A stretch of DNA of 64,000 bases, from IMG/VR virus record IMGVR_UViG_643348549_000020; one strand, written 5' to 3'. Shown here piece after piece: positions 515 to 31,513 of the stretch. The notes below the pieces were generated by a model, which had not been told where the DNA came from, searched no databases, and saw only the letters and a program-made list of their open reading frames with translations. The stretch's first letter is position 1. Every line of letters starts with the position of its first letter. Origin of the DNA: a virus. Lineage: Duplodnaviria > Heunggongvirae > Uroviricota > Caudoviricetes. The position numbers and the translations under genes were made by a program.

Positions 515-763
515 ATGCGTGTTGAGATCTGTATCGCTAAAGAAAAAATCACTAAAATGCCAAACGGTGCTGTGGATGCGTTAAAGGAAGAATTAACCCG
601 ACGCATCAGTAAACGTTATGACGATGTAGAGGTGATCGTAAAAGCCACCAGCAACGATGGCCTTTCTGTTACGCGCACCGCCGATAAAGATTCAGCTAAA
701 ACTTTTGTTCAGGAGACGCTGAAAGATACCTGGGAGTCTGCTGACGAGTGGTTTGTTCGCTAA
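515..763 (+). CDS. DinI-family DNA-damage-inducible protein (82 aa)
   Basis: ORF preceded by aggagg RBS; C-terminal [10 protein letters not shown] motif typical of DinI; usual position at the tail-fibre end of lambdoid prophages. Confidence 0.8.
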
Positions 764-1090
764 TAAACACGTAAATCGGTAACGGCTGGAAATCATTCAA
801 TACTCGCACTATCGAAAGTTCACCAGCCAACCGCGACACGCTCTTACATACGAAGTGCCGCGCTTTCCTTAATAATTTTTTAGCAGTACTGTGTAAATAA
901 TGAGCGACCTAATCCATGCATGACGCGTAGTGCCTATTGTGCATCTTTCTGCGTCTCTTTTTACTGGACCCAAGCCAATGATGCTGGCGATACCATTCCC
1001 GCCAGGCCCACTTACAACAGTAAAATTCGGAGCTCTGCCTTTACATACAATACAATCTACCTAACAAATATCCCCCGGACATTGCAACAC

Positions 1091-1116
1091 AAAAACCGGA
1101 GCCGGACTCCGGTTTT
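1091..1116. terminator. GC-rich palindromic hairpin flanked by A-run and T-run (bidirectional intrinsic terminator) at the end of the late operon
   Basis: aaaaaccggagccggactccggtttt seen directly; same element in copy Y at 46661-46686. Confidence 0.55.
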
Positions 1117-1130
1117 GTGAAGCTGTCGGG

Positions 1131-1400
1131 TTACTTCATCCCGCCAATATTTTCCCACGTCCCGTCAGCACGCAGGATTTGCAGCGGTCTTACCACGCAC
1201 TGTATCTGCTTTTTATCCGCATCCAGTATCACCACCTGCGTGATTACCCTGTCCTGCTCCGGGATAATGCCATTCTCATCTGACTCCAGGATGTCTGCCG
1301 GTCCCAGTCGCAGCTGTGCTGTAGGCGACTGCACGTGTTCACGGCCATCATGCTTTCCGCAACCACACAGACACTGCATAAGTTTTTTTAGTATATTCAT
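1131..1400 (-). CDS. Small protein (89 aa from internal ATG at 1400) paralogous to the C-terminal domain of the adjacent tail fibre; possible fibre accessory protein
   Basis: RBS aggaga upstream of ATG; shares the RLGPA-I-E-NG-P motif block with the tail-fibre C-terminus. Confidence 0.5.
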   Translation of the reverse strand: MNILKKLMQCLCGCGKHDGREHVQSPTAQLRLGPADILESDENGIIPEQDRVITQVVILDADKKQIQCVVRPLQILRADGTWENIGGMK

Positions 1401-1401
1401 G

Positions 1402-2715
1402 TCATTCTCCTGTTCTGCCTGTATCACTGCCCACTTCATCCAGCCCCTTAACATCCTGCCACGGCCCGTCACCAAACCTGACCTGCAAATGCCGAAACAG
1501 CCCCTGAACCTGTGTGGCATCTTTGGGGTCAAGAAAGGTCAGTCCGGTGATGAGTGCGCCATCTGTATCCGGGAACCAGCCATTGCTGTTTGTCTCAATA
1601 ATGCTCGCCGGCCCCAGACGAAAACGGATTTGTGCCTCCCCCGGGTCGCCCTTCGGTCCCTGAGGTCCGGTTGCCCCCACCGGGCCAGCCGCACCTGTTT
1701 CTCCTTTCGGTCCCTGTGGGCCTGCCGGGCCTGCCGCACCGGTATCTCCCTTTGGACCCTGTGGACCTGCATTTCCCGTCAGACCGGTCTCTCCCCGCTC
1801 TCCCCTGTCACCTTTCGGCCCCTGCGGGCCTGCCGGACCAGCATCACCTGCCGGTCCCCGTTCGCCGGTTGCCCCGACAGGGCCGGTGTCACCGCGCTCT
1901 CCCTTATCACCCTTCGGCCCCTGAGGACCCGCGGGCCCCTGTTCCCCCTTTGGCCCGGGAGGTCCCACCACGGTGGGGATTCGGTTTACGGCCTCTTCCG
2001 CCGCTATCCTGCTTTGTTCCGCTGACTGTGCGCTTTCTGCTGACTCCCGGGCTTTTTCTGTTGCGGTCGTTGCATCCCTGGCTGCATTACCGGCTGCACT
2101 TTCTGCCGTCTTTCTTGACAATTCAGCTTCTGCTGCACTTTGTGATGACTCACTGGCTTTTTGAGCGGCCGCAGAAGCCGAGGACGAGGACGCATCCTCT
2201 GACTGCTTTGCAGCGGCTGCACTTTCTGCCGCCTGCCGGGCTGACTCCAATGCATCCCCTGCTGAAGTGTCAGCATTTGCCGCGCTCGCTTCCGCCTTAC
2301 TGGATGATATGCCGGCATTCCTCGCTGATGTCTCCGCCTCTCCGGCATTCTTCTTCGCCTCCTCAGCGTGACGCGCCGCTTCTTCCACCATCAGTTCAAA
2401 ACGACGCAGTGCCTCCGGCCGGACGTCATCCTCCGACATGGCACCGAGAAAATCATTCAGCGTCCCCGGTTGAGAATCTTCATACACGGTGATGGTCCCG
2501 GCATGTGACGGCGGGAAGCCCTCCACCAACAGAATGACGCTGTACTGACCGTACTCAACGTCCATGCTGTAACGACCGGCTTCATCCGGATTTTCAGAGG
2601 CCACCGTGTTCACCACCACCGTGGCGCTGTTACGTCTGGCTTTCAGTTGAATGGTGCAGTTCTCTACCGGTTTTCCTGTGCCGTCTTTCAGTACACCTGA
2701 AATCTTTACTGCCAT
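1402..2715 (-). CDS. Phage tail fibre with long collagen-like Gly-X-Y repeat region (437 aa)
   Basis: About 35 consecutive G-x-x triplets ([29 protein letters not shown]...) after an Ala/Glu/Ser-rich coiled-coil segment; position downstream of lom and J. Confidence 0.85.
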
Positions 2716-2779
2716 ATTCCCCCCACAAAAAAGCCCGCCTGAACCGGCGGGCTGTCATAACACTGTGTTACCTGGCTAA

Positions 2780-3379
2780 TCAGAATTTATAACCGACACC
2801 CACGATGAAACCGTCAGTGCGCCAGTCGCCACTGCCGGAGCCTTCATAAGCAATATCAATGGCCACGGATTCGGTCGGGTTAAACTGCACGCCAGCTCCC
2901 CACGCCAGAGACGTGTTGCTGTGGCGACCGTCATCACTTCCGGTCAGCACATCGTGCGTTTTCCCCTTGTTGTCAGTTACGCGGAGATAATCCCCGTAGA
3001 AAGTCGACACACGGCTGTAAGCCACACCCGCCATCGCATACGCGCTGAACCATTCATTCACGCGTACAGACGGCCCCGCCATCACGCTGAACCAGCGGTT
3101 ACGCACGGAATCTTCATGCCAGCGGGTATCGCTGTAGCGCGTTTTTTGCTCATCCTCAGCATTGGCATAACTGAAGGACGTAATCAGCCCCAGCGCGTCC
3201 ATAAACTCATAACGGTATTTCACGTTAATCCCGTTCAGATCATCACTACCGGGAACGTTCGTCGAGGCATGGAGATACCCCGCGCTCAGCGTGGACTGAT
3301 GTTCTGCTGCACTCGCTGGCGTAGCAGCGGCGACCTGCCAGACTACTGCGGACAAAATAACAGCACATAATTTACGCAT
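2780..3379 (-). CDS. lom: Lom-family outer-membrane beta-barrel protein (199 aa)
   Basis: Signal peptide plus C-terminal ...GFIVGVGYKF; near-identical to lambda Lom as recalled. Confidence 0.85.
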   Translation of the reverse strand: MRKLCAVILSAVVWQVAAATPASAAEHQSTLSAGYLHASTNVPGSDDLNGINVKYRYEFMDALGLITSFSYANAEDEQKTRYSDTRWHEDSVRNRWFSVMAGPSVRVNEWFSAYAMAGVAYSRVSTFYGDYLRVTDNKGKTHDVLTGSDDGRHSNTSLAWGAGVQFNPTESVAIDIAYEGSGSGDWRTDGFIVGVGYKF

Positions 3380-3446
3380 AATTACCTCTCGCTTTTCTGC
3401 AATAAAAAAGGCGCCATTTCTGGCGCCCGTATCTGGGTTATAAAAT

Positions 3447-6400
3447 TCAGCTAATCGTGATGCCTGCAGTGGCTTTCTTCATCACCACAACCAGCAAATC
3501 GCTGATACTTGCTGTGGGATACCAGTTATTTACCAGCCATGCTGACACCGAAAACTCCAGTGTCATGTGACCGTGACCGGCAGGCATATCAATAACACCA
3601 CTGTAAATCAGCGTATTATCCAGCGCGGTACGGTTATAAATTTCAGCACCGTTTTTCCGCACTATCAGACGGCATGAGGAGTAAATATCAGTATGCTCTT
3701 TCTCATGTTTAGCGCCGCTGAATGCCACCGCCGGAATAACAATCTGCCGGTCAAACGGCTGATCGTCATAAACCCTGACGGTAATGGTTCCTGATGGCCA
3801 CCGCTCCGGTGCACGGGAGTCCCGGGGGAAAGCTTTGCCCACTGTTTTAACGAGATCGCCTTCAATCTGGTTCGCGGACAATTTTCCCAGAACCCGACAG
3901 TTCTCGTTAATCGTGACGTTGTTGAGCGTCCCGGAGTTCGCATTCACGTTACCGCTGATATCGGCATTTTTCGCCGTCAGCCGCCCGTCCGGTGTCAGGG
4001 AAAATGCCGGAGGATTACCGCCGCTGGTAATGGTGGGAGCCGTCAGATATTTCAGGAACACTTCATTCATAAATATCTGATCGCCCTGACCAACAAACAT
4101 CGGCTTTGTGTTGCCATTCGCAGGATTAATCATCGCAATCCTGTCTGCCGCCAGCAGCACCTGACTCTGCATTCCTGCTGGCGTATTCTCAATACCGGCA
4201 CCGATACCCGCAATATAAAGGCGTCCGTCCTGCATCTGCTGCAGTTTCACGGCCCACATGCTGTTCAGGTTATTATTTGTATCAACCTGAACTTTCTGTA
4301 TCTGCTGGATTGCCGCACTCTGATTTTCCAGTTTTTTATTGACGGTCTGCGTGATTTCATTGCTGACATTCGTAATGGACGTCCTGATTTCAGCCAGGTC
4401 CGGCGCAAGCTGACCGTTATCAATCTGCGTCCACAGCTCCTGGGCCAGATGTGTTTTCCCGATTTCTCCTTTGAAAAAATCCAGGTAACCTTCCGCATCA
4501 TCGCTCGCCCGACCGACAGCCTCCACGAATGCCGATTTGCCAACAGTATTCACACTGCGGATATAAAAATAATAATCATGGCCCGGTTTGATATTGATAC
4601 TGGCAGCTATCCAGTACAGCGCCGAGCCAAGATAGCGGGCTGCGGTTTCAACCTGCCTGATATCCGCAATCCGCTTTTCCGAAAACCAGAACTCAAACTG
4701 TACCGTCGGGTCATAAACGGCAAGATGCGGCGTGGCGGTTATCTGAAAATAGCCCGGCGTCAGCTCAATCCGCGACGGTGCTGCCGGTGCGGCAATCCGG
4801 AAGGTGGTGGTGGCAGGTTCACCCTGCTGGCCATAGCTGTTTATCGCCCGCACCGTCAGGGTGTATTCCCCGAGCGGCAGGCCGCTGAAACGGTGCTCCG
4901 TGTCTGCGGTGATGGCGGTGGTCACCAGTCTGGCATCCGTTCCCTTACCACTGGTCAGGCGCAGACTGAAGCGCACGCCCTTCACCACCCGCGGCGTGTC
5001 CCATTTCGCCTGTGCCAGATACTGACCGTCAGCCGCGCTCACCTCCACCGTCAGGTGCTGCACAGCCGGCGGGATGACGCTGTTCAGCGAACCGGACAGT
5101 GGCTCAAAGCTGGCCCCGTTATCCACAATGGCTTCTTTTTCCGGTACGTGCTGCACTGCCGTGATGGCAAAGGTGCCGTCCGTGTTTTCCCGGATGGAGA
5201 CACAGCGGAACAGGCGACGACGCAGTGACGGCAGGGAGAGTCCCCATACACCGTATGTCTCCACGCCATCCGGCAGGGTGCTGACCTGTATCCGGTCCGG
5301 CGCGGGGTGTGCAGTGATGGCCACGCTCACCGGCTTACCGCTGCCGTTAATCAGGTTCACCGTCGGTGTACCTGTCTCCGGCAGGGTCACCTCACGGTCC
5401 AGTGTCAGGGTGCGGCTGGCGGCATCGATGGACAGGACACGTCCGCCGGTCATGGTCCCGGCATAGTCGTTATCACAGATTTCAATAATGTCACCGGGTG
5501 TGTGACGCAGCCCCTGAGACCCGAGCGTGAAATCCACCGTCTGCGTTTCCAGCAGTCCGGTCTTTATCACCCACAGCCCGGCACGGTGGGCCTGACCGCG
5601 ACTGGTGCAGCCGAACGCATCCATCTTCAGCAGGTTGCGCCCGTAGCGCAGTATGGCTTCCGGGTCTTCCACCAGTTCCGTGGAGGTCTGCCAGCCGTTC
5701 TGCGGGTCGGTGTAATTCACCTCCACCGCCGTGTGGCGGTCCTTCAGGGCGCTGAAGCTGTAGCGAAACCCCACGCCGTTATCATCCACCACCACATCAC
5801 TGCTGGTGTAGGGCCACACCACATCTGACGGACGGTCCTGCACAAACGTCAGCGTCTGCCCGTTCCATACCGGCATACAGCGCATCGCCGAGCAGAAATC
5901 ACTGAGAACGTCCCACGCCTTACGCTGTTGTGACAGGTACGCATTGAAAGTCATCCGCGGCTCTGTGCCCCCGAAACCATCCGGGACCGTCTGGTCGCAG
6001 TACTGCGCAATGGCATACAGCGCCCACTTGTCCACATCCGCCGCCCCCAGGCGTTTTCCCATTCCGTAGCGCGGGTGGGTCAGCATGTCCCACAGGCACC
6101 AGGCAGGGTTGTTGCTGTATGCCGGTTTCAGGCTGCCGTCCCAGATGCCGCTGTACGTGCGTTTTTCCGGGTCATAGTTTGACGGCACCTGGATGATGCG
6201 ACCGCGGATATGGTAGTTCACCGTCATCTGCTGACCGCCAAACTGCTCCGCATCCACCTGCAGCCCCACAATGGCCGTGTTCGGGTAGCACTGTTTCACA
6301 TCGATGATTTCGGTGTATGACGACCACAGCGTTCTGTTCTGCAGCTGGTCCGTGGTGCTGTCCGCCGTCTCCCTGACCATCCGGATGTTAAAGGGCCGGG

Positions 6401-6920
6401 GCGGCAGATTATCCAGAATCACCGACGCCAGGAACTGCGAGGTGGTCTTGCCGTTAATGGTGACATCCTTTTCCGTCACCCAGTTACCGTTACGCTGCAG
6501 CTGAATCAGCAGGCGGACGGATGCCGGGTTACGGTCACCCTGTGAGGTGGTCTGCACCAGTGACTGCACCCCGAAGGTAACCCGCAGGCGGTCAATGTTC
6601 GCGGACGTAATGGTGCGCGTCACCGGCTTTGCCTTCGTCACTTCCACGCCCAGTGCGGTTTCAGAGCCGGATGACTCAAAACCTTCCGGCGGTGTCTGCT
6701 CCTGCTCCCCGGCGCGCCAGACCGCGGTCACACCGTGTATCACGGGATTGCCGTCCGTGTCCGTCAGTGGGGTTTTGTTCACCAGAATACTCTGCAGCCC
6801 CTTCACCGGACCTTCAATCGGCCCTTCACCAATGGCGTCAATCACGCTCATCATCTGCGTGGACTTAAGATTGTCCTTTGCCTCTACCGGCGTGTGCCCC
6901 TTGCCGCCCCCTTTACCCAC
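3447..6920 (-). CDS. J: Tail tip / host-specificity protein J
   Basis: Colinear with lambda J over about 1150 aa; probable GTG start at 6920 ([11 protein letters not shown]...); longest ORF extends to 6971. Confidence 0.9.
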
Positions 6921-7160
6921 TCTGTCCCCCTCTCCTGTCTGATGTCTGAATCTGTTTATGCCAGAAAACAACAGGCACCCCGGAGGGTGCCTGTGTCATG
7001 ACGGAATAAAATTTCTGAAACTCTTCACATTTCCGGCAATTGCCTGTAGCCGCAATAATGACGCTGCATTACTTTTTTGATGCCTGAAAAATAACTCCAT
7101 AACGTTAATCTTCATCGTTCTCTCCCGCAGCTCCGCTAACTCTGCGGGATTTTTTTATTT

Positions 7161-7838
7161 TCATCCCCGCCCGATAACCACCACTTTCCCGTCTCCGCCC
7201 TCATCACGGGTGCTGATGTCCTGGGATATCCGTCGTGAACCAACCAGCATTTCACCATAAGGCACCGGCATCGGGTTCCCCTGGGCAATCATGTTATCCA
7301 GTGACGAAAAATACGTGTTCTGTTTACCGTTATCCGTCGCCCTGTACTCCGGTGTTTTTGCCTTCGGTGCCAGCATCTGGGCCACACCGCCCAGTATCAT
7401 GCTGGCACCCAGTGAGAACAGCATCGTGGTGGCAGTCAGCCCTCCGGCACTCAGGGCTGCGCCCCACAACGCCATCGTTGCGCCGGCGGTGAAGAAAGAG
7501 CCCACGATGGCTGCTGCCCCCAGCACAATCTGCAGTCCGCCCTTTCCGGCTCCGGCCAGTCGCGGCACAATATGGATGACCGCCCCCTCACCCAGAGGTT
7601 CGTGAAGACGGGCGTACACCGCCTCCGGTGCCGTGTCCTCACCGCGAATACGTATCTGGTACCAGCCTTCGTTCATCTGACGGCGGAATCCCGGCATCTG
7701 CAGCGACAGGGCACGGATGGCTTCCGCTGCCGTGTTCACGTACAGGCTGAGGCGGCGGCCAAATCGTTGCAAATCCCCGTGAAGGCAGATGCGTGCCAGT
7801 GGCGGTGACGCCAGACAGAATGCGTTCGTCGTTGCCAT
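7161..7838 (-). CDS. I: Tail assembly protein I
   Basis: MATTNAFCLASP...ARICLHGDLQRFGRR matches the lambda gpI N-terminus; glycine-rich C-terminal half. Confidence 0.85.
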   Translation of the reverse strand: MATTNAFCLASPPLARICLHGDLQRFGRRLSLYVNTAAEAIRALSLQMPGFRRQMNEGWYQIRIRGEDTAPEAVYARLHEPLGEGAVIHIVPRLAGAGKGGLQIVLGAAAIVGSFFTAGATMALWGAALSAGGLTATTMLFSLGASMILGGVAQMLAPKAKTPEYRATDNGKQNTYFSSLDNMIAQGNPMPVPYGEMLVGSRRISQDISTRDEGGDGKVVVIGRG

Positions 7839-8479
7839 TTTTCAGAATACCTCTCCCGTTTACTCAGTTGTTCAGGCAGATGGTGAAGCAGTTCACCGTT
7901 GCCGCAGTATATGGCGGCATGATTGGCCACCGATGCGCCAAAGCAGCACAGCAGGATATCGCCCGCCTGTGCAGAGGACAGGGGCACCCGGTAAAAACCA
8001 GTCGCCGCCATATTGTCCAGGTAAAGGTTCTGACCGTTGCGCCACCAGTCATCCTCACGCTCAAAATCCGGCAGCGTTATCCCCGCCAGATGGTATGCAT
8101 CCCGGAACAGGGTGTAACAGTCCGTCACCCCGTGCTCAAAACGACGCCCGGTCAGGTGCGGCACACAGCGGAATTTATGAATTTCCCCCCGGCAGACCAG
8201 CCACCAGGGCAGGGCACTCTTTATCTGCAGCCGCCGGTCGGCCTCGCTCAGCCAGGGCAGACCACCAGGGTGGCTGTGAACCAGCGCCACAATCTCCCCC
8301 TGCATCTCTGCCTGCAGCCAGTCTTCCGGCGCAATACGAAAATACGCCTCCGGCTCTGCGGAGATATTCACGCAGGGCTGGTACCGTTCGCCCTCCGGGG
8401 TGCCTATCACGAAGCCGCACGACTCCGCAGGCGCACACCGCCGGGCATGCACCAGAATCGCTGATTCAGTCTGTGTCAT
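7736..8479 (-). CDS. K: Tail assembly protein K (NlpC/P60 and JAB-type domains), start at internal ATG 8479
   Basis: MTQTESAILVHARRCAPAESCGFVIG... typical gpK start; gene order between L and I. Confidence 0.8.
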   Translation of the reverse strand: MTQTESAILVHARRCAPAESCGFVIGTPEGERYQPCVNISAEPEAYFRIAPEDWLQAEMQGEIVALVHSHPGGLPWLSEADRRLQIKSALPWWLVCRGEIHKFRCVPHLTGRRFEHGVTDCYTLFRDAYHLAGITLPDFEREDDWWRNGQNLYLDNMAATGFYRVPLSSAQAGDILLCCFGASVANHAAIYCGNGELLHHLPEQLSKRERYSEKWQRRTHSVWRHRHWHASAFTGICNDLAAASACT

Positions 8480-8489
8480 AAAACAGGAT

Positions 8490-9188
8490 TTACTGCGAAA
8501 GTTTATTGATGGAAAGGAAACCGCCAAAATTAGCCACCATGCCGCGCATCTCACACCCGCGCATGCACTTGCTGCATCTGTCCTTACGGATATCCGTGGT
8601 GGGGTTGTCGAACTCATCCGCCACCGCAGGACCGTTATACCCGCATTCATCTCCCCGGTAATCCCACATACAGGTATTCGCCAGCATAATGCGACCGGGA
8701 AACAGCGCTCCGTCCGTCTCCGTCGGTGTTGCCAGCACAAACGAGGCTGTCATGGCCGTCAGCTCTGACATCTGCTCCACCACCCAGCGGTCGCTCAGCT
8801 CCTGCTCCGGGTCCGCTTCCGGATTGCCCGCCACAAAATTCACCGCATCCAGAAAACGGGCATACACCCGGCGGCGGACCACCGTGGCCCCCACCAGGCT
8901 CTGCAGGTCCTCCGCCATTCCGGTGACCAGACCGAACAGATTCGACACCGTCAGCGACGGGCGGGCACTGCTGCCCTTCCCGTTCATCTCAAAACCGCTG
9001 CCGTCAATCGGGTATGCCTGATATTCCCGCCCCTGCCAGGTAACCGCCTCCCCTTTTTCATTCAGCTCATTGCAGAAAAAATACCGCTCACCACCCTGCA
9101 CCGTCAGGTCGATTTCCCAGAGCACCACCCGCGGTGACTGCTCCGATTTAACCGACTCGATCAGGCTTTCCCCGTGAATATCCTGCAT
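8490..9188 (-). CDS. L: Minor tail protein L
   Basis: Position and lambda gpL-like sequence (MQDIHGESLIESVK...). Confidence 0.85.
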   Translation of the reverse strand: MQDIHGESLIESVKSEQSPRVVLWEIDLTVQGGERYFFCNELNEKGEAVTWQGREYQAYPIDGSGFEMNGKGSSARPSLTVSNLFGLVTGMAEDLQSLVGATVVRRRVYARFLDAVNFVAGNPEADPEQELSDRWVVEQMSELTAMTASFVLATPTETDGALFPGRIMLANTCMWDYRGDECGYNGPAVADEFDNPTTDIRKDRCSKCMRGCEMRGMVANFGGFLSINKLSQ

Positions 9189-9517
9189 CAGTTCACCACC
9201 TGCTTAAACTCCGCGCTGAACTCAACGCGCAACATCCCGACCCGCGCAGACCACCCGGCACAGGTCACCTTTATCTGCCGGTATGCATAGGGTGGCTTCC
9301 ACAAAAATGCCTTCCAGCCTCCGTGCTCTGCCAGGAATGCCTCCAGATGTCGGGCCTCCTCCCGGGTCACGGAAAGCGTCACACGGTATGTTTTCAGGTC
9401 AGCATTCAGCCCCGCCGCCATACGCTGCGAATACCCGTCACCAAAACGCACTTCACGCACCGATGGCTGCGAGTTCACCTCCATATCCGGCTTCACTTTC
9501 CAGCGAAATGTTTTCAT
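9188..9517 (-). CDS. M: Minor tail protein M
   Basis: 109-aa ORF between H and L, lambda gpM-like. Confidence 0.85.
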   Translation of the reverse strand: MKTFRWKVKPDMEVNSQPSVREVRFGDGYSQRMAAGLNADLKTYRVTLSVTREEARHLEAFLAEHGGWKAFLWKPPYAYRQIKVTCAGWSARVGMLRVEFSAEFKQVVN

Positions 9518-12168
9518 CGCCTGCTCCCCGATAACATACCGCCATCACGCAACTGCAGCCGGAGCTCATCCTGCGCCCCCTTGCGGGCCATGTCATACAC
9601 CGCCTTCATCAGCTGCGGCCCCGCCTGTCCGTTGGTGCCGTCGTTCTGAATCACCACGTGATTGTTCTGATTAAAATTAATGCCTTCCGTCCGCCGCATC
9701 TGCGCCGGACTTCCGGCACCGCCCACATAACCCCCTTCCGCATAGCCCCGCATCAGGCGGTACAGGTTGCCGACGCCAATCCGGCTGGTTGCCTCCTTCG
9801 TGAAGACAAACTCCCCGCGATGAACAATTCCCGCAGGTTCATATTTACCCCCCGTCCCCGTAAATCCCCCGGTCGCGAAATGGAAGTTCGCCGCCGCAGC
9901 CTGAATGGCCGTCCCCGTGGAGGCAGACGCACCACCACCGAAAGCACCGCCAATGGCGCTGCCGATACGCCCGACAATGCCCACCATGGCCTGTTTAAGC
10001 AGGATTTCTGTCATCATGGACAGCACCGAACGGGTGAATCCCCGCCAGTCTGCCTCTGCACCGGTCAGCATCGCCGCCATATTCTGTGCAATACCGTCAA
10101 AGGTCTGCGTGGCAGCACTTTTAACCTGCGAAAAACTGTCCGTCGCACTTTCCGCCCACTCGCCCCAGCCGGACTTCAGCCCGGCCATCCAGCTTCCACG
10201 AAGCTGCTCCTCCGCAGACCAGGTGTTCTTCAGTGCCGATGTGGCCTTCGCCAGCGCAGCCGGATTATCACCGTACACGTCCCGAAGACGCTGCGCTTCA
10301 GACTCCCGCTGCGCCTGACGGTCAGTGAGACCGCGGGCTTTTGCGCTGATGGCGGCCTGCTTCGCGCTCTGCTGCTCTTCAAACCGCACCGCCTGCTGTG
10401 CCAGCTCATTCAGGCGTTTCTGGTATTCAACCTTGTCGCCCAGCTCAGCCAGCTGGCGTTTGTACTCCAGCGTCTCGTCTTTATGCGCCAGCAGGGATTT
10501 TTCCTGCTCAGATAACTGTCGTTTCGTGGCAGCCTCTTTCAGGACCGCATACTGACTTTCCGCCTTCCATAAATCACGGCGCTGCCGGCTGATTTTCTCA
10601 TTCGCACCGCTGTGTTTTTCCAGCGTCCTGAGCTCAGCTTCAAGGGCAAGCAGAGCCTCTCTTGCCTGCTCCTCTTCCCTCTCCCCGGCAGAGCGCGTTT
10701 TCGGTGATGTATGCTTTTTACCTGTCAGCTCTTCAGCCAGACGGCTGACGGCTTCCTGCTGCCCCGGACCTTTGCTGACGCCTGTTGCACGCGAACGGTT
10801 GATGTACCCCATTTCCCCCTGGCGTATACGCGCATCCCGTTCCGCAATGGATTTTCTCAGCGCCAGTTCATCACGTTTTGTTTTCTCAATAAATACGCGG
10901 TTCTCTTCTGCCAGTTCACCAAACAACGCACCAACGCCGGGCACATTCTTTGTCGTTTCCCAGGCTGACTGAATAAATTCAGCCAGCGCCAGATCCCCCT
11001 GCACAAGCAGCAGCTTCACCTGTTCAACGGTTCCTGCCACCACGTCAGTGATCAGACTGAGTGCCCCCAGTGTATGATCACCTATCCATGCCCATGCGTC
11101 AGAAGTCCAGGTTTTAACATCGTCCCAGATTTTTTCCACCGGCGTGGCCGCTTTATCAAGTTGCTCCAGACGTGCATTCATGACATCCGCAAACAGGGAC
11201 ATCGCCTCCGTCACCGCAGCCTGTTTACCTTTCGTGCGCTCAAGCTCATCAATATGGCGTAACTGGGAAACGCTCAGGAAGTTATACTGCTGATTCAGGG
11301 AGGCCAGCGCCTTCACCGGATCTGCTGCAATCCCTTCAAAGGCTTTTTCCACCTTCCCGGCATCGTCCCCCACCGTCTGCAGCCATCTCTGAGAGGTTTC
11401 CCCCATGATCCGTAGCTGCCCGGCGGTATATTTCCCGCTTTCTGCCAGACGGGCCAGATTTTCTGCCGCCTGTCTGATACCACCACCGGCTTCATCGCTG
11501 ATCACCCCGGCCATTTTCCACAATTCTGCCGTTGTGGTGGCAGCAGCCCCTCCGGTCAGGGTCAGTGAACGCAATAAGGCCCGGTCAGCCTGCTCTGCCT
11601 GCCAGGCGGCGGCAGCAAGCGCGGCCAGTACGGCAACCCCGCCACCTGCCGCCACACGGGCCACCGACATAAATCGTCCCAGCTCACCGGCATTCCGGGC
11701 ATTTTCAGCCAGTGCATTTGCCGTATCTGACAGCGACTCCTCTGATGATTCAGAGGCATCCCTGATCCCGAGAAGTTCCTCCTTCAGCAGGGTAAGCAGG
11801 CTGAGCGGTCCACCGAATGAATCGCTGATCTGCCCCCCCTGCTGCAGCATGATAAGGAAGGGATTCTGACCACCGGCAAGCTGAGTGACAATATCCGTGA
11901 ACTGTGCGGGCAGTGTGCGCATGGCAGCCTTATACTGTCCGACTGATATCCCGGCTTTTTGTGCAGCCAGCGCCTGTCGGCTCAGACTCTGCTCAGCAGC
12001 ATCAGCCTGTTTTCTGAAAGACTGACTGACTTTCCCGGACATCAAATCAGCAAGCGCACTGGTTTCACCCAGCTCTTTTTTTACCCGCGCTGCCTCTTCA
12101 GAAAAACGGGCAGAATCCAGTGTCAGCACGGCTGTCAGATCGGCAAAATTACCTGCCATCGTGGTCAC
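9514..12168 (-). CDS. H: Tail tape-measure protein H (884 aa)
   Basis: Long Ala/Gln/Glu-rich coiled-coil protein with glycine-rich C-terminal region in the tape-measure position. Confidence 0.9.
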   Translation of the reverse strand: MTTMAGNFADLTAVLTLDSARFSEEAARVKKELGETSALADLMSGKVSQSFRKQADAAEQSLSRQALAAQKAGISVGQYKAAMRTLPAQFTDIVTQLAGGQNPFLIMLQQGGQISDSFGGPLSLLTLLKEELLGIRDASESSEESLSDTANALAENARNAGELGRFMSVARVAAGGGVAVLAALAAAAWQAEQADRALLRSLTLTGGAAATTTAELWKMAGVISDEAGGGIRQAAENLARLAESGKYTAGQLRIMGETSQRWLQTVGDDAGKVEKAFEGIAADPVKALASLNQQYNFLSVSQLRHIDELERTKGKQAAVTEAMSLFADVMNARLEQLDKAATPVEKIWDDVKTWTSDAWAWIGDHTLGALSLITDVVAGTVEQVKLLLVQGDLALAEFIQSAWETTKNVPGVGALFGELAEENRVFIEKTKRDELALRKSIAERDARIRQGEMGYINRSRATGVSKGPGQQEAVSRLAEELTGKKHTSPKTRSAGEREEEQAREALLALEAELRTLEKHSGANEKISRQRRDLWKAESQYAVLKEAATKRQLSEQEKSLLAHKDETLEYKRQLAELGDKVEYQKRLNELAQQAVRFEEQQSAKQAAISAKARGLTDRQAQRESEAQRLRDVYGDNPAALAKATSALKNTWSAEEQLRGSWMAGLKSGWGEWAESATDSFSQVKSAATQTFDGIAQNMAAMLTGAEADWRGFTRSVLSMMTEILLKQAMVGIVGRIGSAIGGAFGGGASASTGTAIQAAAANFHFATGGFTGTGGKYEPAGIVHRGEFVFTKEATSRIGVGNLYRLMRGYAEGGYVGGAGSPAQMRRTEGINFNQNNHVVIQNDGTNGQAGPQLMKAVYDMARKGAQDELRLQLRDGGMLSGSRR

Positions 12169-12202
12169 CTCCTGAAATGTCCTCTGATACCATCAATAAC
12201 TG

Positions 12203-12562
12203 TCACAACCTCCTTCCCTCCTCCCCGAAACGGACTCCACCGGCGAGGCCCGCCGCCTTCTGCATCAGTACATCATTTTCGTCCGGCGTCTCCGCCTGTC
12301 CTTCCTCTGCCTCCGGAGCGAACAGGCTGAAATCCGCCGGATGCATATCCGGATCGCAAAAAAACAGGCTGAGTACGGCGTACATCAGCCCGGAAAAATG
12401 CATATCCAGCTGGGTATCCTGAAAATAATGCGTGCAGTAAAAACGTCGCCAGTCGGCATATTCGGTGGATGTCATCCCGGCAAGCATGGCGCGCCAGTCG
12501 GCTCTCTCCATCTCACGCGCCAGTTTCAGGACAAAGTTCAGCTCGCCTTCGAATGCTTTTTT
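12203..12562 (-). CDS. T: T-frame extension of tail assembly chaperone GT, entered by -1 programmed frameshift from G
   Basis: Slippery heptamer A_AAA_AAG (minus strand, 12562-12556) six codons before the G stop; -1 frame is open from there to the stop at 12203. Confidence 0.7.
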   Translation of the reverse strand, partial: KKAFEGELNFVLKLAREMERADWRAMLAGMTSTEYADWRRFYCTHYFQDTQLDMHFSGLMYAVLSLFFCDPDMHPADFSLFAPEAEEGQAETPDENDVLMQKAAGLAGGVRFGEEGRRL

Positions 12563-12960
12563 GATGTTACCGGCTCAGTCGCTTCTGTTTTCCCGGTTGG
12601 TTCAGGATCGGCATCGTGCCGGTTATCCAGCATACCTGAAAGATAAAGCACCCGGTTCGTTGCCTGATTCAGTGCATCAGCAGGCCATCCCAGCATCACT
12701 TCACGGCGGATCTGCTGCATCTCTGTCTCCGGAGAGGCCAGAGTGCCTTTGAGGGAATGGGAATGCCATAGCGACATCGCCACAAGCAGGGATGCCGTTT
12801 CCAGATATCGCTGGTTAATGTGCACGACATCATGCTTCGTTGTCTCCTGTTGTTCTGCGTCTGAAACAAACTTTATATAATCAAACCGCTGCAGCGCAGA
12901 CAATTCGGAAAGCGTGACGGACACACCGTTATATTCAAATTGTTCTGTTTTCAGAAACAT
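12538..12960 (-). CDS. G: Tail assembly chaperone G
   Basis: 140-aa ORF between V and H with the canonical frameshift site near its 3' end. Confidence 0.8.
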   Translation of the reverse strand: MFLKTEQFEYNGVSVTLSELSALQRFDYIKFVSDAEQQETTKHDVVHINQRYLETASLLVAMSLWHSHSLKGTLASPETEMQQIRREVMLGWPADALNQATNRVLYLSGMLDNRHDADPEPTGKTEATEPVTSKKHSKAS

Positions 12961-12973
12961 GTATTACCTCCGT

Positions 12974-13726
12974 TTACCCTGCAGCGCCCGCTTCAGTAAC
13001 GGTGACTTCAGCCACTGCGGCGAACTGACCATTTCCGCTCACCACAGGGATCTGCACCTTACCTGTCGCCACGCCGTTTACCGTAATTGTCATATCTTTC
13101 ACACTAATGGTGGCTTTCGACGGATCGGCGGAAACCGCTCTGAACGTCTTGTCGGTTGCACTTTCCGGCTCAAAAGAAACCGTCAGGGTGGTTGTTTTCC
13201 CTTTTGCCACCGTACCGGATGTCGGTGTCACCTTAATTGCAGTGGCCGGCGTAATTTCGCTGCGTTCTTCCGCCACGGAAGGTTTGCCCACGTTAGTGAC
13301 TTTCACCGTGCGGGTGATCACTTCTTTCGCCGTCACGGCCTTACCGATACTGCTGACCCAGCCACGGAACACATCCACCGTGCCATTTGGGAAACGGATT
13401 TTATAGGCCCGCACATCCCCGCTTTCAAACCAGCCTATAAGCCCTTTCTGACCTTCTTCTCCCGGTTTCCAGGCCAGCGTAAAACTGGTATCTCCTGCAG
13501 ACTTCTGCCCCTGCCCGGTCGCGGTCCAGTCCGCGTCTTCATCATCCAGGTAGTTATCATCGTAGGGTTCTGCCGTCATCTCGCCCGGCGTCAGATCCTT
13601 CACCTTAGCCAGTCGCTGCCAGTCATCGTCTGACAACGGGTTTGCATAAGCATCACCCTTGCCGTTGTAAACCCACAGAGTGGTACCGGCACCTTTTACC
13701 GGCTCAAGGGGATTTGGTGTTGCCAT
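12974..13726 (-). CDS. V: Major tail protein V with C-terminal Ig-like domain
   Basis: 250-aa ORF in gpV position; Thr/Val-rich beta-sandwich-like C-terminus. Confidence 0.85.
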
Positions 13727-13733
13727 ATCGTCC

Positions 13734-14132
13734 TCACATCTCGTAGGTAATTTTCCACAGGAGATCTGCCGATCCCCACATCATAAACTCATCATCCCGG
13801 CGGTAGTCATACCCCTGAAGATTCATCTTCAGCAGTAATGCACTGAGCCCGGGAACTGCCTCCAGCGCAGGAAGAATTTTTTCTTCCATCCACATATCCA
13901 GTGCCGAGTCCGGTTCTTTTGCCCTGAGAAAAACCTCAATATGCAGTGTCGCCTCCCAGGTTCCCTCATCAACGAACTCGTCAGCAGCAGACGCATCTGT
14001 CAGGTAAACAGCAACAGCAGGCAGTTCCTGTTCATCAATAAAAACCGGGCGACCGTCAAACCAGCTCACCCTCTCAGAAATATTTTCTTTCAGGGCAGAC
14101 AGAACTGCCGCCCGTATTTCACGGTGTTTCAT
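13734..14132 (-). CDS. U: Tail terminator protein U
   Basis: [14 protein letters not shown]...GYDYRRDD...ITYEM closely parallels lambda gpU. Confidence 0.85.
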
Positions 14133-14144
14133 ACACCCTCCCAG

Positions 14145-14774
14145 TCATTTTCTTTTCAGCACCAGGCGTAACTGATGCGTCATGGCTTTCATCATCTGCG
14201 CCGGTAATTTTTCCCGGTACATCCGGTCCCGTTCACGTTCAAAGGTTTCTGCCAGCGGTCCGGCAGTCGTAATCTTCACCACTTCGATCGGCAGACGGTG
14301 GCGTTTCGGCCTCCCTTTGCTGTCCGCGCCGGTGGATGATGATGCCCACGGCATACGCTGCATCACATGCCAGCGTCCGTTAGCCAGCCGGGTGATAAAG
14401 GCGTCCGGGATCCGTCTTTTCCCCACAATCAGCACACTGCCGCCCCCTTTCAGGGCCGCACGCTGTCCTTTCTTTCTCCGTTTTCTGCGGGAAAGTCGAA
14501 CGCGGGCCTCCCCCAGTTTGATGGCGGGCAGGTTGCCGGTATTGATGTAAACCTTTGCGTAAACCTTATCCGGTCGTGCCGGACTTAACCGGATGCGGGC
14601 ACGGATAAGACGACGGGGAACGGCCAGCTCCCTGGCAACTGAAGAGGCCGTTTTCGCAATAATGGCCCCCGCCACTCGGTTCAGTGTCGTGGCAGAGGCC
14701 CGGGGAACGGCACGGCGATCAATTGCATCCAGATTTTTCATGGCCTGCGCCAGACCTTTTATTGCCATACTCAT
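14145..14774 (-). CDS. Z: Tail completion protein Z-like
   Basis: Basic 209-aa protein in the gpZ position upstream of U. Confidence 0.6.
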   Translation of the reverse strand: MSMAIKGLAQAMKNLDAIDRRAVPRASATTLNRVAGAIIAKTASSVARELAVPRRLIRARIRLSPARPDKVYAKVYINTGNLPAIKLGEARVRLSRRKRRKKGQRAALKGGGSVLIVGKRRIPDAFITRLANGRWHVMQRMPWASSSTGADSKGRPKRHRLPIEVVKITTAGPLAETFERERDRMYREKLPAQMMKAMTHQLRLVLKRK

Positions 14775-15052
14775 TCCTGTTCGACAAAAATCCGGGGTTT
14801 ACCGTTGTACGTGTCATAACGGGTCACCGTCAGTGTGCGCCCCGCAAACACAACAACATCATGACGGGCCGGACGGTACCGGGCTGAAAACACCACCAGT
14901 GACAACTGGCTGCCCGAAAGCGCCCCCATCTCCGCGGACTCTTCCTCCGGCATCACGTCGTACACGACGCCGTTAATCTCCGCCTGTTTGCCCATCACCC
15001 GAACGGTCGCCACGTCCATCCGGCAACACATTCGCGTAAACAGATCAGACAT
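14771..15052 (-). CDS. Head-tail connector (FII-position) protein
   Basis: Small ORF overlapping Z start; assigned by gene order only. Confidence 0.4.
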   Translation of the reverse strand: MSDLFTRMCCRMDVATVRVMGKQAEINGVVYDVMPEEESAEMGALSGSQLSLVVFSARYRPARHDVVVFAGRTLTVTRYDTYNGKPRIFVEQE

Positions 15053-15371
15053 TGATTTTTACCGCCACAGTGGCGCTGTTTGCAGGGGCATTTTCCCAGG
15101 CTACCCCCGCTGCCACCGCACCGTCTGCAGCCAGCTGCACAACCCCGTCCTTCAGATAAACCACCGCGCCGGACTGAATGTCGTCAGCAGACTGTTTGGG
15201 CAGCAGGAACACGCCTTCGGCAAAACCGTCACCGGCCTCACCGGCAGGAATATCGGTAATGGCCACGGCCACCATACTGCCGACCACCACCGCAGCACCG
15301 CTCAGGATGGTCTGATCTCCGGCATTCACCAGTTCAATGGTGGTACCGTCCTGTACAAAATTTTTCGCCAT
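15045..15371 (-). CDS. Small Ala/Gly/Val-rich head protein (DUF2190-like, FI position)
   Basis: 108-aa ORF immediately downstream of the capsid gene; low-complexity beta-rich sequence. Confidence 0.4.
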   Translation of the reverse strand: MAKNFVQDGTTIELVNAGDQTILSGAAVVVGSMVAVAITDIPAGEAGDGFAEGVFLLPKQSADDIQSGAVVYLKDGVVQLAADGAVAAGVAWENAPANSATVAVKINV

Positions 15372-15458
15372 AATGCTGTTTCTCCGGACAGCCCCTGTGG
15401 GGCTGTTTTTCAGGCATAAAAAAAGCCCTTTCGGGCAGTGATTGTGATAACGCGGTTA

Positions 15459-18400
15459 TCAGGCCACCGACGAACGCACCAGCCCGCGCCAGTCAAGTGG
15501 TGCCACTCCGGCATCAATACGGATTTTTGTGGCAATGCCGTCAGTGGTGAAACCTTCCTGCTGATCAATGTATGGCGTGTCCACACCATCCAGCCAGGCC
15601 ACTTCAATGGTGTCAGTGCCCTGTGCCGCCGCCAGATACCAGGTTTTCGGGTCTGCCGCATCAAGACGCGCTTCTGCAATCACCTCAGCAAAGTTCTGGA
15701 TAGGGTTAATGACACCGGCGTTTGCATCCGCCCCTTTCACACTGGCCGATTTGATGGTCTGGTTCGCCACCGTCTCCAGTGCCACCGGTACCAGCATAAA
15801 GGCCGGACGGATATTCAGGGCACGATCGCCTTCTTTCTGCAGGCGCATCATCTGACGGGCCGCATCCAGTCCGGAAACGGAGATCCCCCCGGTGGCAATA
15901 TTTTTGTGATCGGCATGGAACAGCGCCTTACCGTCGGACAGTTTCGGGTTATCCGTCAGCACCTTGTAGACCAGGTCACCAATCGTTGCCTTCGCCGCAC
16001 GCCCCATCTTCATCGGCACGTCCACCAGCATATTCAGATCATCATTGATAATGGCCTGGCGGGTGATGGAGAAAATCTCCCCGTAAGTGGCCAGTGCAAT
16101 GGTCTCCTTGCGATCTGAGGTGGTGATGTATTTATACTCCGCCCCCTCACGAACCTGGCGCAGAGAACCAAAACCGCCCATCCCCACGCGATACGCTGTT
16201 TTGAAGTCTGACAGGCGTCCCTTACGGGTCCACTTCTGGAAGGTTTCTTCTGATTCCTCCCAGCCCTGGATCAGCCCCTTGTTCGACACATCCAGCAGAA
16301 TATTGCCAAAATCAGAGGTGCTGTGCGTCAGCGCCAGCCCGACCATCTGCATGGGGTTATAACTGGCCACCCCAATACCGCGCTCCGTCAGTGACATGCG
16401 AGCCCATTCACGCAGGGTCATCCCGTTATAGGCGTTATCCTTCTCGACATTTTCAAATCCGGCACGGGCCAGCATCGCCTGGCGGATCCCGTCCCCCACA
16501 AAATTGCCGTTTCCGGCATAAATATGGGCCGGTGTATTTTTGTTGGTCGGCGAGGACTCCTTGCCCATTTCATTCAGCAGACGTTCACGGGCCATTTCCA
16601 GCGAACAGTCAGGATCAGCCACGCACTGTGCCTGAAGCGTCTGATAGCGACCGCCGAACATGGCAAACAGATCGTTAATGCCTGACATGCGGGCTTTCTG
16701 CTCAGCCATAACGCGGGCGCGAATGGTCGCCTCATCAGACACTGCCGGTACCGGTGATGGTTCTGTTACCGCCGGTGCAGGGATTGTCACTGTGGTATCA
16801 CGCGGGGCACTGTTGCGTGGCGGAGTAATCATGTTTCGGATGGATTCCGGCATCTTTTTAAATTCCTCTGTACGTTTTGACTGAATACATGCCATTGCCT
16901 CAACAGCGGGTGTCACCTGGTCAGCAAATCCGTGTGCCAGACATTCGGCACCGGACATCCAGGTTTCATCCGCCAGCATGGCGGCAATTTCATCGGTGGT
17001 TTTTCCGGTTTTCTGCGCATAGGCTGGCAACAGTACCGATTCGACTTTATCCAGCAAATCGGCATAACTGCGCATATCCTCAGCATCCCCGCCACTGAAT
17101 CCCCATGGCTTATGGATCATCATGAAGGCATTTTCCGGCATAATGACCGTATCACCGGCCATCGCAATCACAGATGCCATCGAGGCGGCAACGCCATCCA
17201 CATACACGGTAATGGTCGCCCCCTGATTTTTCAGGGCATTAAAAATGGCGATGCCTTCAAAGACATCGCCACCCGGTGAATTGATATGGAGATTAATGTG
17301 GGTGATATCACCCAGTGCATTCAGTTCGCTGACAAACTGCTTCGCGGTAACTCCCCAGAAACCAATCTCGTCATAAATATAAATATCCGCGTCACCCGGC
17401 CCCCCAGCTTGCATCCTGAACCAGGATTTATTCTTCATGCTGGCTTTCGGTGTCGCGCTGATACTGTCGTTCAGTTCCGGCACTGTTGCCTCCTTTGTCG
17501 TTGACGGGGTCAGTATCAAAGACCAGCCCCAGTCTGCTGTTTTCATCAATTTCAGCCTTGCGGCGACGTTTGACCTCATCCCGGATTGCGCCCCCGGCAC
17601 GCACCCAGTCAGATTCTGTCGCTGCACACCCCGGATCTGAATTCTCCAGGCTTCAGCTTCCTTAACCGGGTCGATCCACGGCATCACCGGACCGGAATAC
17701 GTCGCGTTATATAGCGTTTTCATCTCCACATCCGCCGGAATTTTCAGCAGACCTGCCGCAACCACCATATTCAGCCATGTCCGGTACACCGGGCGGGTTA
17801 CCGCGCCAATAAAACAGTCCTGCAGGATCAGGTAACCATCCGTGGACTCGACCAACTCCTGCCGCTGGGCGCTGTAGGTGCCGTTATAGTTACGCGCCGC
17901 ACTGGAAAAACTCAGACGACTGCCTGCTGCCACTGCACGCAACTGGCCGTTGCGGAAAGTTTCAAGGTTGGGATTGGGACGGTCAGATTTGACCATGCCG
18001 ATATCCTCGCCCTTGCGCAAATCGTCATAAATAATACCCGGGGTGATATGGACTTCCCGCTCGGTCTCTTTGCTCCCCGGATCTTCATAGTCCTGTCCGT
18101 CACCTTTACGGATATACAGTCCCAGCGCCGCAGCAATACGCGCCGCTGTCAGTTCCGCATCCTCATACTCCTTAAGGGCACTGATCCGCATCAGCACCCC
18201 CGATAACATGGATGAGCCTCGCGTCTGATGCAGACGACGAGTGAACTTCAGGTGGATCATTTTTCCGGCAGCGATTTCTTTCGTATCACTCTGCCGGCCT
18301 CTGACCGGATAATTTTTATAAACCAGATATTTTTTCGGTCTTCCCCACTCATCAAGAAAAACCCCCTGATTCAGTCCGGCGGATTCATCAGTGCGCATGG

Positions 18401-21734: not shown

Positions 21735-21759
21735 TTACATCCCTCCACATAAACCGCAG

Positions 21760-24184: not shown

Positions 24185-24188
24185 CAGC

Positions 24189-24404: not shown

Positions 24405-24481
24405 ACCCCGTCTCCCGCAATCCGGAAGCTCACAACAATAAAAAAGACCACCGGCACACACCGATGGTCCCTGACGCATGC

Positions 24482-24727: not shown

Positions 24728-24767
24728 GGGATTTTCTCGTCGAAAGATGTGATTAAGAAAGTTGCCG

Positions 24768-31512: not shown

Positions 31513-31513
31513 A

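Follow-up and report, generated by a model that had tools for sequence, protein, structure and literature searches.

The 64,000-nucleotide stretch of DNA analysed here (the window) is part of E. coli O157:H7 EC4115 (CP001164.1:2891135-2955134), between btsS and mlrA/yehV, and carries a composite of two lambdoid prophages. An excised circle of EC4115's own ompW prophage most probably entered the resident yehV prophage by a single homologous crossover. The window was 100% identical to CP001164.1 in the three loci covering 15084-58945. Two parent types were distinguished: X, the yehV prophage of TW14359 (Sp15-like, stx-negative), and Y, the separate ompW-site prophage of TW14359. The sequence itself shows which parent each segment comes from, where the two junctions lie, that an attP joint is present and that the donor copy has been kept. 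The composite event is already known from the same locus of the same strain, and no new question is opened by it: according to PMC9997748 (Microb Genom 2023), homologous recombination brought the second prophage of EC4115 into the Sp15-like prophage at yehV, and this second prophage is almost identical to one that TW14359 carries at ompW. Eppinger et al. 2011 had reported this second prophage as an element in the tRNA triplet; it was reinterpreted in PMC9997748. The present composite shows no difference in kind from that description. Added here at base level are a 17-bp interval in nanS-p for the crossover and the junction reciprocal to it, and an attP joint whose core measures 32 bp; the donor is further traced to the ompW copy of EC4115 itself, and the TR01 record is recognised as not independent.

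The late modules and the X-derived segments comprise the following features.

1-1059, no strand assigned: btsS-proximal end of the resident yehV prophage X, with cargo and gene remnants, outside the repeat (RefSeq annotation of TR01 and TW14359)
515-763, plus strand: DinI-like gene (RefSeq annotation)
1060-18430, minus strand: copy 1 of the late module, X type, with tail fibre genes, lom, J, I, K, L, M, H, T/G, V, U and Z (self-BLAST, annotation), the remainder being head-tail genes, a ClpP-protease/capsid fusion and portal (annotation)
15459-18929, minus strand: fused portal-protease-capsid ORF of copy 1, 1156 aa
18930-24947, minus strand: X-type terminase and lysis cassette segment (annotation)
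19138-21261 and 21258-21734, minus strand: X-type large and small terminase, respectively (annotation)
22190-22657, 22811-23380, 23651-24184 and 24189-24404, minus strand: Rz-like, Ant-like, lysozyme and holin genes of the X lysis cassette, which also includes DUF826 and DUF1378 (annotation)
46628-64000, minus strand: copy 2 of the late module, Y type, ending inside the portal gene (self-BLAST)

Self-comparison by BLAST revealed one long direct repeat, 1060-18430 against 46628-64000, with 96.65% identity over 17,385 columns (556 mismatches and 17 gap openings) and a period of 45,568 bp. The first-pass annotation had proposed such a near-repeat, and its starts (1075 and 46640) agree within 15 bp; the end it gave, 17650, is about 780 bp short of 18430. 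Copy 2 is truncated by the window end within the portal gene. In the full genome the homology reaches ~27471 in copy-1 coordinates, about 26.4 kb in total, and the additional part consists of terminase, parts of the lysis region and nanS-p. RefSeq annotation of the identical sequence, together with Pfam families on the called genes, gave the lambdoid late gene order in both copies on one strand: terminase, portal, protease/capsid, head-tail, Z-U-V-G/T-H-M-L-K-I-J-lom-tail fibre. The copy-1 portal is part of a fused ORF, produced by three indels at runs of C (17580 +C, 17593 -A and 17626 -C). TW14359 and copy 2 both have an intact portal gene, and the RefSeq annotation of TR01 labels the copy-1 portal 'frameshifted'.

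The divergence between the copies is strongly uneven. There are 572 differences to the left of ~10529, versus 25 to the right, and the maximum chi-square for patchiness is 411, against a maximum of 17 among 200 permutations. V and U are 100% identical at the nucleotide level and Z is 99.84% identical (one base differs), as the earlier reading had anticipated; the ClpP-capsid gene (99.75%) and K (99.7%) are also close. Lower identities were found for H (96.5%), L (95.0%), the tail-fibre C-terminal gene (94.1%), J (92.8%), I (92.1%) and lom (88.2%). The most divergent patch is located in J (4809-5049), with 76 differences in 241 nt (~68% identity), so that the patchwise divergence claimed for lom and J was also borne out.

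Comparison with TW14359 indicated where these differences come from. At 592 of the 597 sites distinguishing X from Y, copy 1 carries the X allele and copy 2 the Y allele; taken singly, copy 1 is X type at 594 of the 597 informative sites and copy 2 is Y type at 595. Positions 1-1059 are identical to TW14359. The X-type segment 18930-24947 is identical to the TW14359 yehV prophage except at 21933. The regions 24181-44242 and 43994-64000 match the TW14359 ompW prophage at 99.7-99.9%, and the inserted Y unit differs from it by 5 SNPs in ~38 kb, with the X-derived part and the att arms set aside; one SNP (40883) was found over the ~18 kb of the Y early half (26077-43950). The ancestral state is represented by TW14359 and hundreds of other complete O157:H7 genomes, which have a single X prophage at yehV. 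The mosaic divergence of the two late modules thus appears to be an older divergence between two paralogous resident prophages. Divergence after duplication, as implied earlier, is contradicted by the presence of the differences in two separate TW14359 prophages. Tandem duplication of one late module in place, followed by patchy divergence or gene conversion, might have been suggested by the long identical stretches (up to 1,891 bp, with V and U at 100%) beside divergent patches; however, since the differences already existed between separately located prophages, and since the copies are separated by a whole second phage genome rather than by a duplicated spacer, this origin is scarcely credible.

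The left border of the inserted DNA is located in a nanS-p-type gene.

25084-27030, minus strand: chimeric nanS-p-type gene with DUF1737, SASA esterase and DUF6645 domains, containing junction 1 (Pfam families)
26060-26076, no strand assigned: homologous crossover interval of 17 bp (three-way alignment)

In the three-way alignment, all 30 informative sites in 24187-26059 are X type and all sites from 26077 onward are Y type. The reciprocal switch from Y to X (junction 2) falls in the same homologous interval; it lies beyond the window and was read from the TR01 record, not from EC4115. The two junctions are therefore reciprocal at one homologous position, with junction 2 taken from TR01, and the shared sequence is left as a direct repeat, as in a Campbell-type insertion. 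The crossover sits in a 98%-identical stretch and not in the 7.9-kb near-identical block, a placement which does not contradict the insertion model, yet is not predicted by it. Stimulation of the crossover by Chi was considered and rejected: a Y-allele-specific Chi site is found 730 bp away, but its orientation does not fit RecBCD entry from a lambda-type right cos end.

From this junction the Y sequence runs through the early and regulatory half into the integration module and the cargo.

26077-43950, no strand assigned: the half of inserted prophage Y (ompW type) that holds its early and regulatory genes (annotation, Rfam), including RusA, DUF968, hok/sok and DicF/dicB (annotation or Rfam)
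27178-27579: AgvB, STnc100 and a tRNA remnant (Rfam matches)
27625-28683: methyltransferase (annotation)
29258-30079: Q-type antiterminator (annotation)
35617-37111: Y replication genes (annotation)
37618-37845 and 37923-38330: Cro-like gene and repressor-like HTH gene, respectively (annotation)
40085-42529: ExoVIII-type exonuclease (annotation)
42594-42842: xis (annotation)
42820-43950: int (annotation)
43996-44121, minus strand: phage-borne ompW 3'-end surrogate, the P arm and core of attP (OmpW-fragment annotation, PF03922 match)
44087-44118, no strand assigned: att core of 32 bp, GTGGTATCGATATCCATGTACCACACTGGTAG (arm comparison with TW14359)
44122-46627, minus strand: Y cargo region with DUF4376 and transposase remnants (annotation)
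44974-45564: OspG-family effector kinase (annotation)
45740-46437: IS1 (annotation)

No tRNA was found by ARAGORN, and Rfam gave just a partial tRNA match at the RefSeq-annotated tRNA-Met. The methyltransferase gene is specific to Y and the Ant-like gene of the lysis cassette to X; Y also has a 558-nt ORF of its own, located between its holin and lysozyme genes.

The tyrosine integrase adjoins the ompW 3'-end surrogate, which places Y among the ompW-integrating lambdoid prophages (PPompW); the same element occupies ompW in both TW14359 and EC4115. The surrogate (43996-44121) is identical to the int-side arm in TW14359, and the cargo (44122-46627) to the yciE-proximal end of the TW14359 ompW prophage. 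The two arms meet in an attP-type joint, with the int-side arm up to 44086, the cargo-side arm from 44119 and the 32-bp core common to both. TW14359 lacks this joint of int, core and Y cargo; its genome covered no more than 64% of the junction query. No further ompW-type core was found in the window or in the whole 94-kb btsS-mlrA composite. The inserted DNA is thus a complete ompW phage genome in circular permutation: early half, int, P-core-P', cargo and late half.

Prophages in tandem or nested in one another are frequent in O157:H7 and in other STEC, and arrays with the same int/ompW-3'/cargo joint exist at ompW elsewhere, for example in TX 265-1, which has an integrase-type array of three different phages at that site. 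Two independent integrase-mediated lysogenisations, as a classic tandem or as a prophage-in-prophage at an attB of the resident prophage, are nevertheless very improbable for EC4115. The insert has no bounding att cores and its single ompW-type core is internal; int lies mid-segment and not at either end; both borders are in homologous register inside nanS-p; and the genes stand in the order of the prophage at ompW, circularly permuted. Two co-linear lambdoid late modules in the same orientation with mosaic divergence are indeed present, as first described, but the side-by-side prophages which that description implied are replaced by a nested permuted insertion, with reciprocal nanS-p junctions and a single internal attP. 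The array is itself a recombination product, given these junctions, this attP and the prior existence of the differences in separate prophages; the suggestion that such repeats serve as recombination substrates was supported for O157:H7.

The donor is still resident, since EC4115 retains Y at ompW, 1.1 Mb from the composite. The inserted copy and the EC4115 ompW copy show no differences over 44091-58945 (14.9 kb), and share 4 variants missing from TW14359. At least one SNP (40883, in the exonuclease gene) separates the yehV-site copy from the EC4115 ompW copy, and its allele is present in other isolates. In the proposed mechanism, Y at the yciE-proximal side of ompW would have left the chromosome through its own Int/Xis, or would have been packaged and then injected into a cell of the same clone, either route giving a circular 45.6-kb genome with attP. 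This circle would then have inserted by a single reciprocal crossover, Campbell-type and driven by homology rather than by integrase, at the nanS-p/DUF6645 gene common to Y and the resident Sp15-like prophage X. The order that results is X late and X lysis genes, crossover, Y early genes, int, attP and Y cargo, followed by Y late and Y lysis genes, the reciprocal crossover, and X tRNAs, Q, early genes and int. We infer the circular intermediate, the acting recombination system (host RecA or phage-encoded) and the consequences, namely pop-out or unequal exchange across the ~26 kb direct repeat and possibly cos-to-cos packaging of the 45.6-kb recombinant unit.

An assembly artefact in the 2008 EC4115 sequence is improbable, though less so than the two origins weighed above. 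The real genome would then be TW14359-like, with one prophage at yehV, and reads from replicating Y circles that had excised spontaneously (and carry the attP joint) would, along with the near-identical repeats, have been built into the yehV prophage during assembly. The lack of differences between the inserted unit and the EC4115 ompW copy over the 14.9 kb compared would fit such an error, as would the clustered homopolymer indels in copy 1, which are typical of sequence errors. TW14359, which probably belongs to the same 2006 spinach outbreak as EC4115, is without the insertion. Neither the structure nor the chimeric nanS-p protein was found in any independent genome: among 5,426 complete genomes the composite structure was matched by TR01 only, and in the collection searched the exact chimeric protein occurs on two contigs only, from EC4115 and TR01. 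TR01 was rejected as independent confirmation, after clustered differences had been found and its core genes had proved 1.6-2.4% divergent, in contrast to prophage DNA identical to that of EC4115. It looks like an EC4115-templated assembly, which leaves EC4115 as the sole independent genome with the structure. Nine other genomes contain a contiguous int/ompW-3'/cargo joint; none has the X/Y chimera, and they were not accepted as further examples.

On the other side, the junctions are exact reciprocals in one 17-bp interval with many parent-specific flanking sites, which is unexpected from a collapsed repeat or a random false join. SNP 40883 also distinguishes the yehV copy from the ompW copy, and a later comparison of 35 closed genomes took the structure as real (PMC9997748). 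Copy 1 was not copied from copy 2, but the inserted 45.6-kb unit does duplicate the ompW prophage of EC4115. A small misassembly risk remains for the composite, because EC4115 is the only independent genome and TR01 looks templated on it.

Insertion of an excised ompW circle by homology has a classical parallel. In lambda, double lysogens are formed by general recombination between a superinfecting or Int-deficient phage and the resident prophage. There too a circular phage genome recombines with a homologous prophage, and the resulting double lysogen is a permuted tandem in which the cos site is duplicated; in EC4115, however, the partner is a heteroimmune paralogue at a different att site, so both units are hybrid. 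Prophage-in-prophage insertion was reported in STEC and EPEC, along with PPompW prophages (PMC8112680, PLoS Pathog 2021). That system likewise has a lambdoid phage inside another prophage, involves ompW-site prophages, and duplicates whole prophages and their cargo inside a single cell. Its insertion is integrase-mediated into the attB of the host prophage with attL/attR at the borders; whereas the EC4115 borders are homologous crossovers in a shared gene, and attP is intact inside the insert. The Sp11-Sp12 tandem at ydfJ is also similar, as are the compound O157:H7 prophages that gain or lose DNA by recombination (Chen et al. 2013, as cited in PMC9997748; PMC7645076). In these cases, same-orientation lambdoid prophages have long near-identical late regions, and homologous recombination adds or removes ~50 kb units. 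Sp11-Sp12 is described as a tandem integration at a single att locus; the array in EC4115 is nested, a Campbell-type insertion whose source prophage is still resident.

A G+C-rich stretch at ~21900-21950 may be a cos site; an exact search for lambda cosN gave no match, and the cos positions considered here are putative. If a cos lies upstream of the small terminase gene in each late module, the two sites would share one orientation, 45.6 kb apart, and bracket a complete hybrid genome, composed of the structural, cargo and early genes of Y and the lysis genes of X. This unit could be packaged cos-to-cos without excision, and pop-out by crossing over at any point of the 26-kb repeat would set free genomes with new mosaics of J, lom and tail fibre. 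It is a tentative and rather unlikely suggestion that the array may behave in this way, like a lambda tandem double lysogen. As part of the same suggestion, if EC4115 and TW14359 do belong to one outbreak, a copy of a resident prophage would have re-inserted on the outbreak time scale, and the genes for an OspG-family effector kinase and for the sRNAs AgvB and DicF would have been duplicated with it.

For practical purposes, short-read assembly and SNP typing are easily misled at this locus, and the public "complete" genome TR01 appears to have inherited its structure from the reference and not from its own reads. The composite provides a base-resolved example of reshuffling among the near-identical lambdoid prophages of O157:H7, in which a resident prophage can copy itself by homology into a paralogous prophage. 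The outcome is hybrid units, long direct repeats prone to deletion or amplification, and additional copies of genes for effectors and sRNAs.

Hundreds of O157:H7 chromosomes are about 100% identical to the first 20 kb of the window. Positions 15084-58945 are 100% identical to the E. coli O157:H7 strain EC4115 (CP001164.1), over three loci retrieved by exact protein look-up, and the window corresponds to CP001164.1:2891135-2955134. The gene context comes from TR01, a near-identical record annotated in RefSeq; every late gene lies on the minus strand. The features are as follows:

Directly before the window start: btsS (yehU)
1060-18430, minus strand: late module, copy 1, followed by the terminase and the lysis cassette
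25084-27030: nanS-p-type DUF6645/SASA-esterase gene
27178-27239, plus strand: AgvB (anti-GcvB sRNA; Rfam)
27241-27433, minus strand: STnc100 (Rfam)
27519-27578, minus strand: partial tRNA match (Rfam), tRNA-Met in the RefSeq annotation; ARAGORN called no tRNA here
32490-32664, minus strand: sok (Rfam), next to hokD
39395-39446, plus strand: DicF (Rfam)
42820-43950: int, which together with xis ends the complete early region that follows the nanS-p gene
43996-44121: ompW 3' fragment, 126 bp
44974-45564, minus strand: OspG-family effector kinase gene, cargo region
45740-46437: IS1, beside the kinase gene in the cargo region
46628-64000, minus strand: late module, copy 2
Past the window end: terminase, lysis genes, second nanS-p, tRNA triplet, Q, early genes and an integrase abutting mlrA (yehV)

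Self-comparison of the window revealed a single long direct repeat, 1060-18430 versus 46628-64000, with 17,385 aligned columns, 96.65% identity and a period of 45,568 bp; copy 2 is cut off by the window end. The late-module repeat proposed in the first-pass annotation is therefore real and far beyond chance. Its start had been placed within 15 bp, whereas its end, at 17650, was about 780 bp too early. The near identity claimed for V, U and Z holds at the nucleotide level (100%, 100% and 99.84%, respectively), and the ClpP-protease/capsid fusion is 99.75% identical. The patchy divergence described for lom and the central part of J was also recovered (88.2% and 92.8% identity). Within J, 76 differences are concentrated in a 241-nt patch (4809-5049; copy 2: 50375-50618) that is about 68% identical, whereas the rest of the gene is 93-99% identical. 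This patch looks like a replaced cassette, which might plausibly affect receptor specificity. Overall, the differences are very unevenly spread, with 572 left of about 10529 and just 25 to the right; the maximum chi-square was 411, versus a largest permuted value of 17 (200 permutations). The tail-fibre N-terminal genes also contain weak internal repeats (72%; 1700-1839 versus 47374-47504 and 47266-47405).

Strain TW14359, which we take to come, like EC4115, from the 2006 spinach outbreak, has only one prophage (X) between btsS and mlrA. A separate prophage (Y) lies on the yciE-proximal side of ompW, 1.1 Mb from the X locus, in tandem with the nleA/nleH/nleF prophage. The spinach outbreak strain named in PMC4928038 is EC4115 only. 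X and Y of TW14359 differ at 597 sites in a four-way alignment with the two copies; at 592 of these, copy 1 agrees with X and copy 2 with Y. The mosaic divergence is therefore an older divergence between two paralogous resident prophages. Divergence after duplication was ruled out, since the differences pre-exist between X and Y. The observation in the first-pass annotation stands, and its interpretation was right in part.

The exceptions are minor: in copy 1, the portal gene is of Y type at three sites (17855, 18073 and 18300), and in copy 2 the tail-fibre gene is of X type at two, as it is in the ompW copy of EC4115. The three portal sites might mark a short gene-conversion tract, 446 bp or longer. 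The portal region of copy 1 also has three single-base indels (17580, 17593 and 17626), all in C runs and within 46 bp, which join the portal and ClpP-protease/capsid genes into one open reading frame (15459-18929, 1156 aa). These indels may be sequencing errors or a genuine inactivation.

The first junction was located in a three-way alignment (X, Y and window positions 24181-27600). The sequence is of X type at all 30 informative sites to 26059 and of Y type at every site from 26077, so that the type changes once, in a 17-bp interval of nanS-p. The other junction lies outside the window and was read from the TR01 record; in the second nanS-p gene it is the exact reciprocal, Y to the homologue of 26059 and X from the homologue of 26077. 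The DNA between the junctions is Y all through, with one SNP (40883) against TW14359 Y in 26080-44118 and four in 44087-64000. A Chi octamer that Y has and X lacks (26803-26810, plus strand) lies 730 bp from the crossover, with no causal link established; such octamers are commoner than expected across the window (16 matches versus 3.4).

The int-side att arm of TW14359 was matched identically up to 44086, and the yciE-side (cargo) arm from 44119. The 32-bp core between them (44087-44118) is common to the window and both arms. Judged from these matches, the int-cargo joint is a P-core-P' attP, as produced by Int-mediated excision or in the native phage form. A joint of Y int and Y cargo was looked for in TW14359 and not found. 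The core is present as a single copy in the window, and likewise in the 94-kb btsS-mlrA composite as a whole; therefore, the inserted segment has no att sites at its borders.

The nested insertion was already described for EC4115, and our conclusion is the same. PMC9997748, a comparison of 35 closed clade 8 genomes that comments on this locus, cites Eppinger et al. for an element resembling a prophage within the tRNA triplet of EC4115's Sp15-like prophage at yehV. According to PMC9997748, insertion was apparently via homologous recombination with the resident prophage, on the grounds that a suitable attB was lacking and the genes stood in an unusual order; the second prophage is described there as nearly identical to a TW14359 prophage at ompW. 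The crossover interval, its reciprocity, the attP core and the donor identity are added here. The prophage-in-prophage of PMC8112680 is related; however, it is integrase-mediated, and this route was ruled out for EC4115, where the att test fails. Other genomes with the int/ompW-3'/cargo joint have integrase-type arrays at ompW. For example, the O157:H7 strain TX 265-1 (NZ_CP038290.1:2664000-2763999) has at least three different prophages at ompW, with ompW 3' fragments between them, which indicates that different phages have reused this att site serially. The head module of one of these prophages is of HK97 type.

The simplest process for the EC4115 structure would be one homologous crossover of a circular Y genome into resident X, as in Campbell's model but driven by homology and not by integrase. 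This is suggested by the complete circularly permuted phage genome, the intact attP, and the reciprocal junctions in homologous register. Parentage, junction positions, the attP joint and donor retention can be read from the sequence; from them we infer the circular intermediate and the kind of recombinase, which might be phage-encoded or, equally possible, host RecA. X encodes Gam/Bet/Exo, and Y an ExoVIII-type exonuclease. The donor was the Y prophage of EC4115 itself or of a clonal sibling, because Y is still present at ompW in EC4115, the insert does not differ from it in the 14.9 kb that could be compared, and four variants absent from TW14359 are common to both. The IS1-bearing cargo arrangement is the same at ompW in TW14359 and EC4115; being identical at the ompW of EC4115, the whole cargo block is duplicated in that strain. 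The single-prophage state is ancestral, since pure X is found in TW14359 and hundreds of other genomes; to restore it from the array, a crossover would have to fall in the very 17-bp interval of the junctions.

The X/Y composite was found in just one of 5,426 complete E. coli genomes, TR01 (NZ_CP033605.1); in the whole assembly collection, the chimeric nanS-p protein was found only in EC4115 and TR01. The TR01 core genes flanking yehV and ompW differ by 1.6-2.4% from TW14359 or EC4115, which is far above our expectation between O157:H7 strains. In its unique prophage DNA, TR01 matches EC4115 at 100%, and other differences between the two cluster in IS1 and a repeated DUF968 gene. This pattern suggests that TR01 was assembled with EC4115 as template, and TR01 is unfit as independent evidence on prophage structure; the structure therefore has the 2008 EC4115 assembly as its sole source. 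An artefact in that assembly is unlikely. The duplicate Y is otherwise indistinguishable from its source at ompW, and the clustered homopolymer indels in copy 1 resemble sequence errors; however, the two junctions are exact reciprocals, and within EC4115 SNP 40883 is in the yehV copy only, occurring also in unrelated draft assemblies. Moreover, the structure was taken as real in later work by others. The feature is a nested insertion, driven by homology, in which the insert is a copy of a resident prophage and the recipient a paralogous one.

As a result, both units would now be hybrid, one with the Y regulatory region and Q upstream of X lysis/structural genes, the other with X tRNAs and Q upstream of Y lysis/structural genes. 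The direct repeat of about 26 kb might invite pop-out or unequal exchange, which are documented in other compound O157 prophages. X and Y have strongly diverged in the first ~65 codons of the small terminase gene and in the DNA directly before it (window 21540-21900); elsewhere their terminase operons are nearly identical, and there is a conserved G+C-rich stretch at ~21920-21940. This divergence resembles a packaging-specificity (cosB/Nu1-type) module swap. The cos sites were looked for and not identified; if each late module has its own, two cos in the same orientation, 45.6 kb apart, would bracket a packageable hybrid genome, and the remaining 48.4 kb would likewise be of packageable size. 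The insertion also gives the genome one extra copy each of AgvB, STnc100, the tRNA match, sok and DicF, and the nested insertion of EC4115 is an instructive example.
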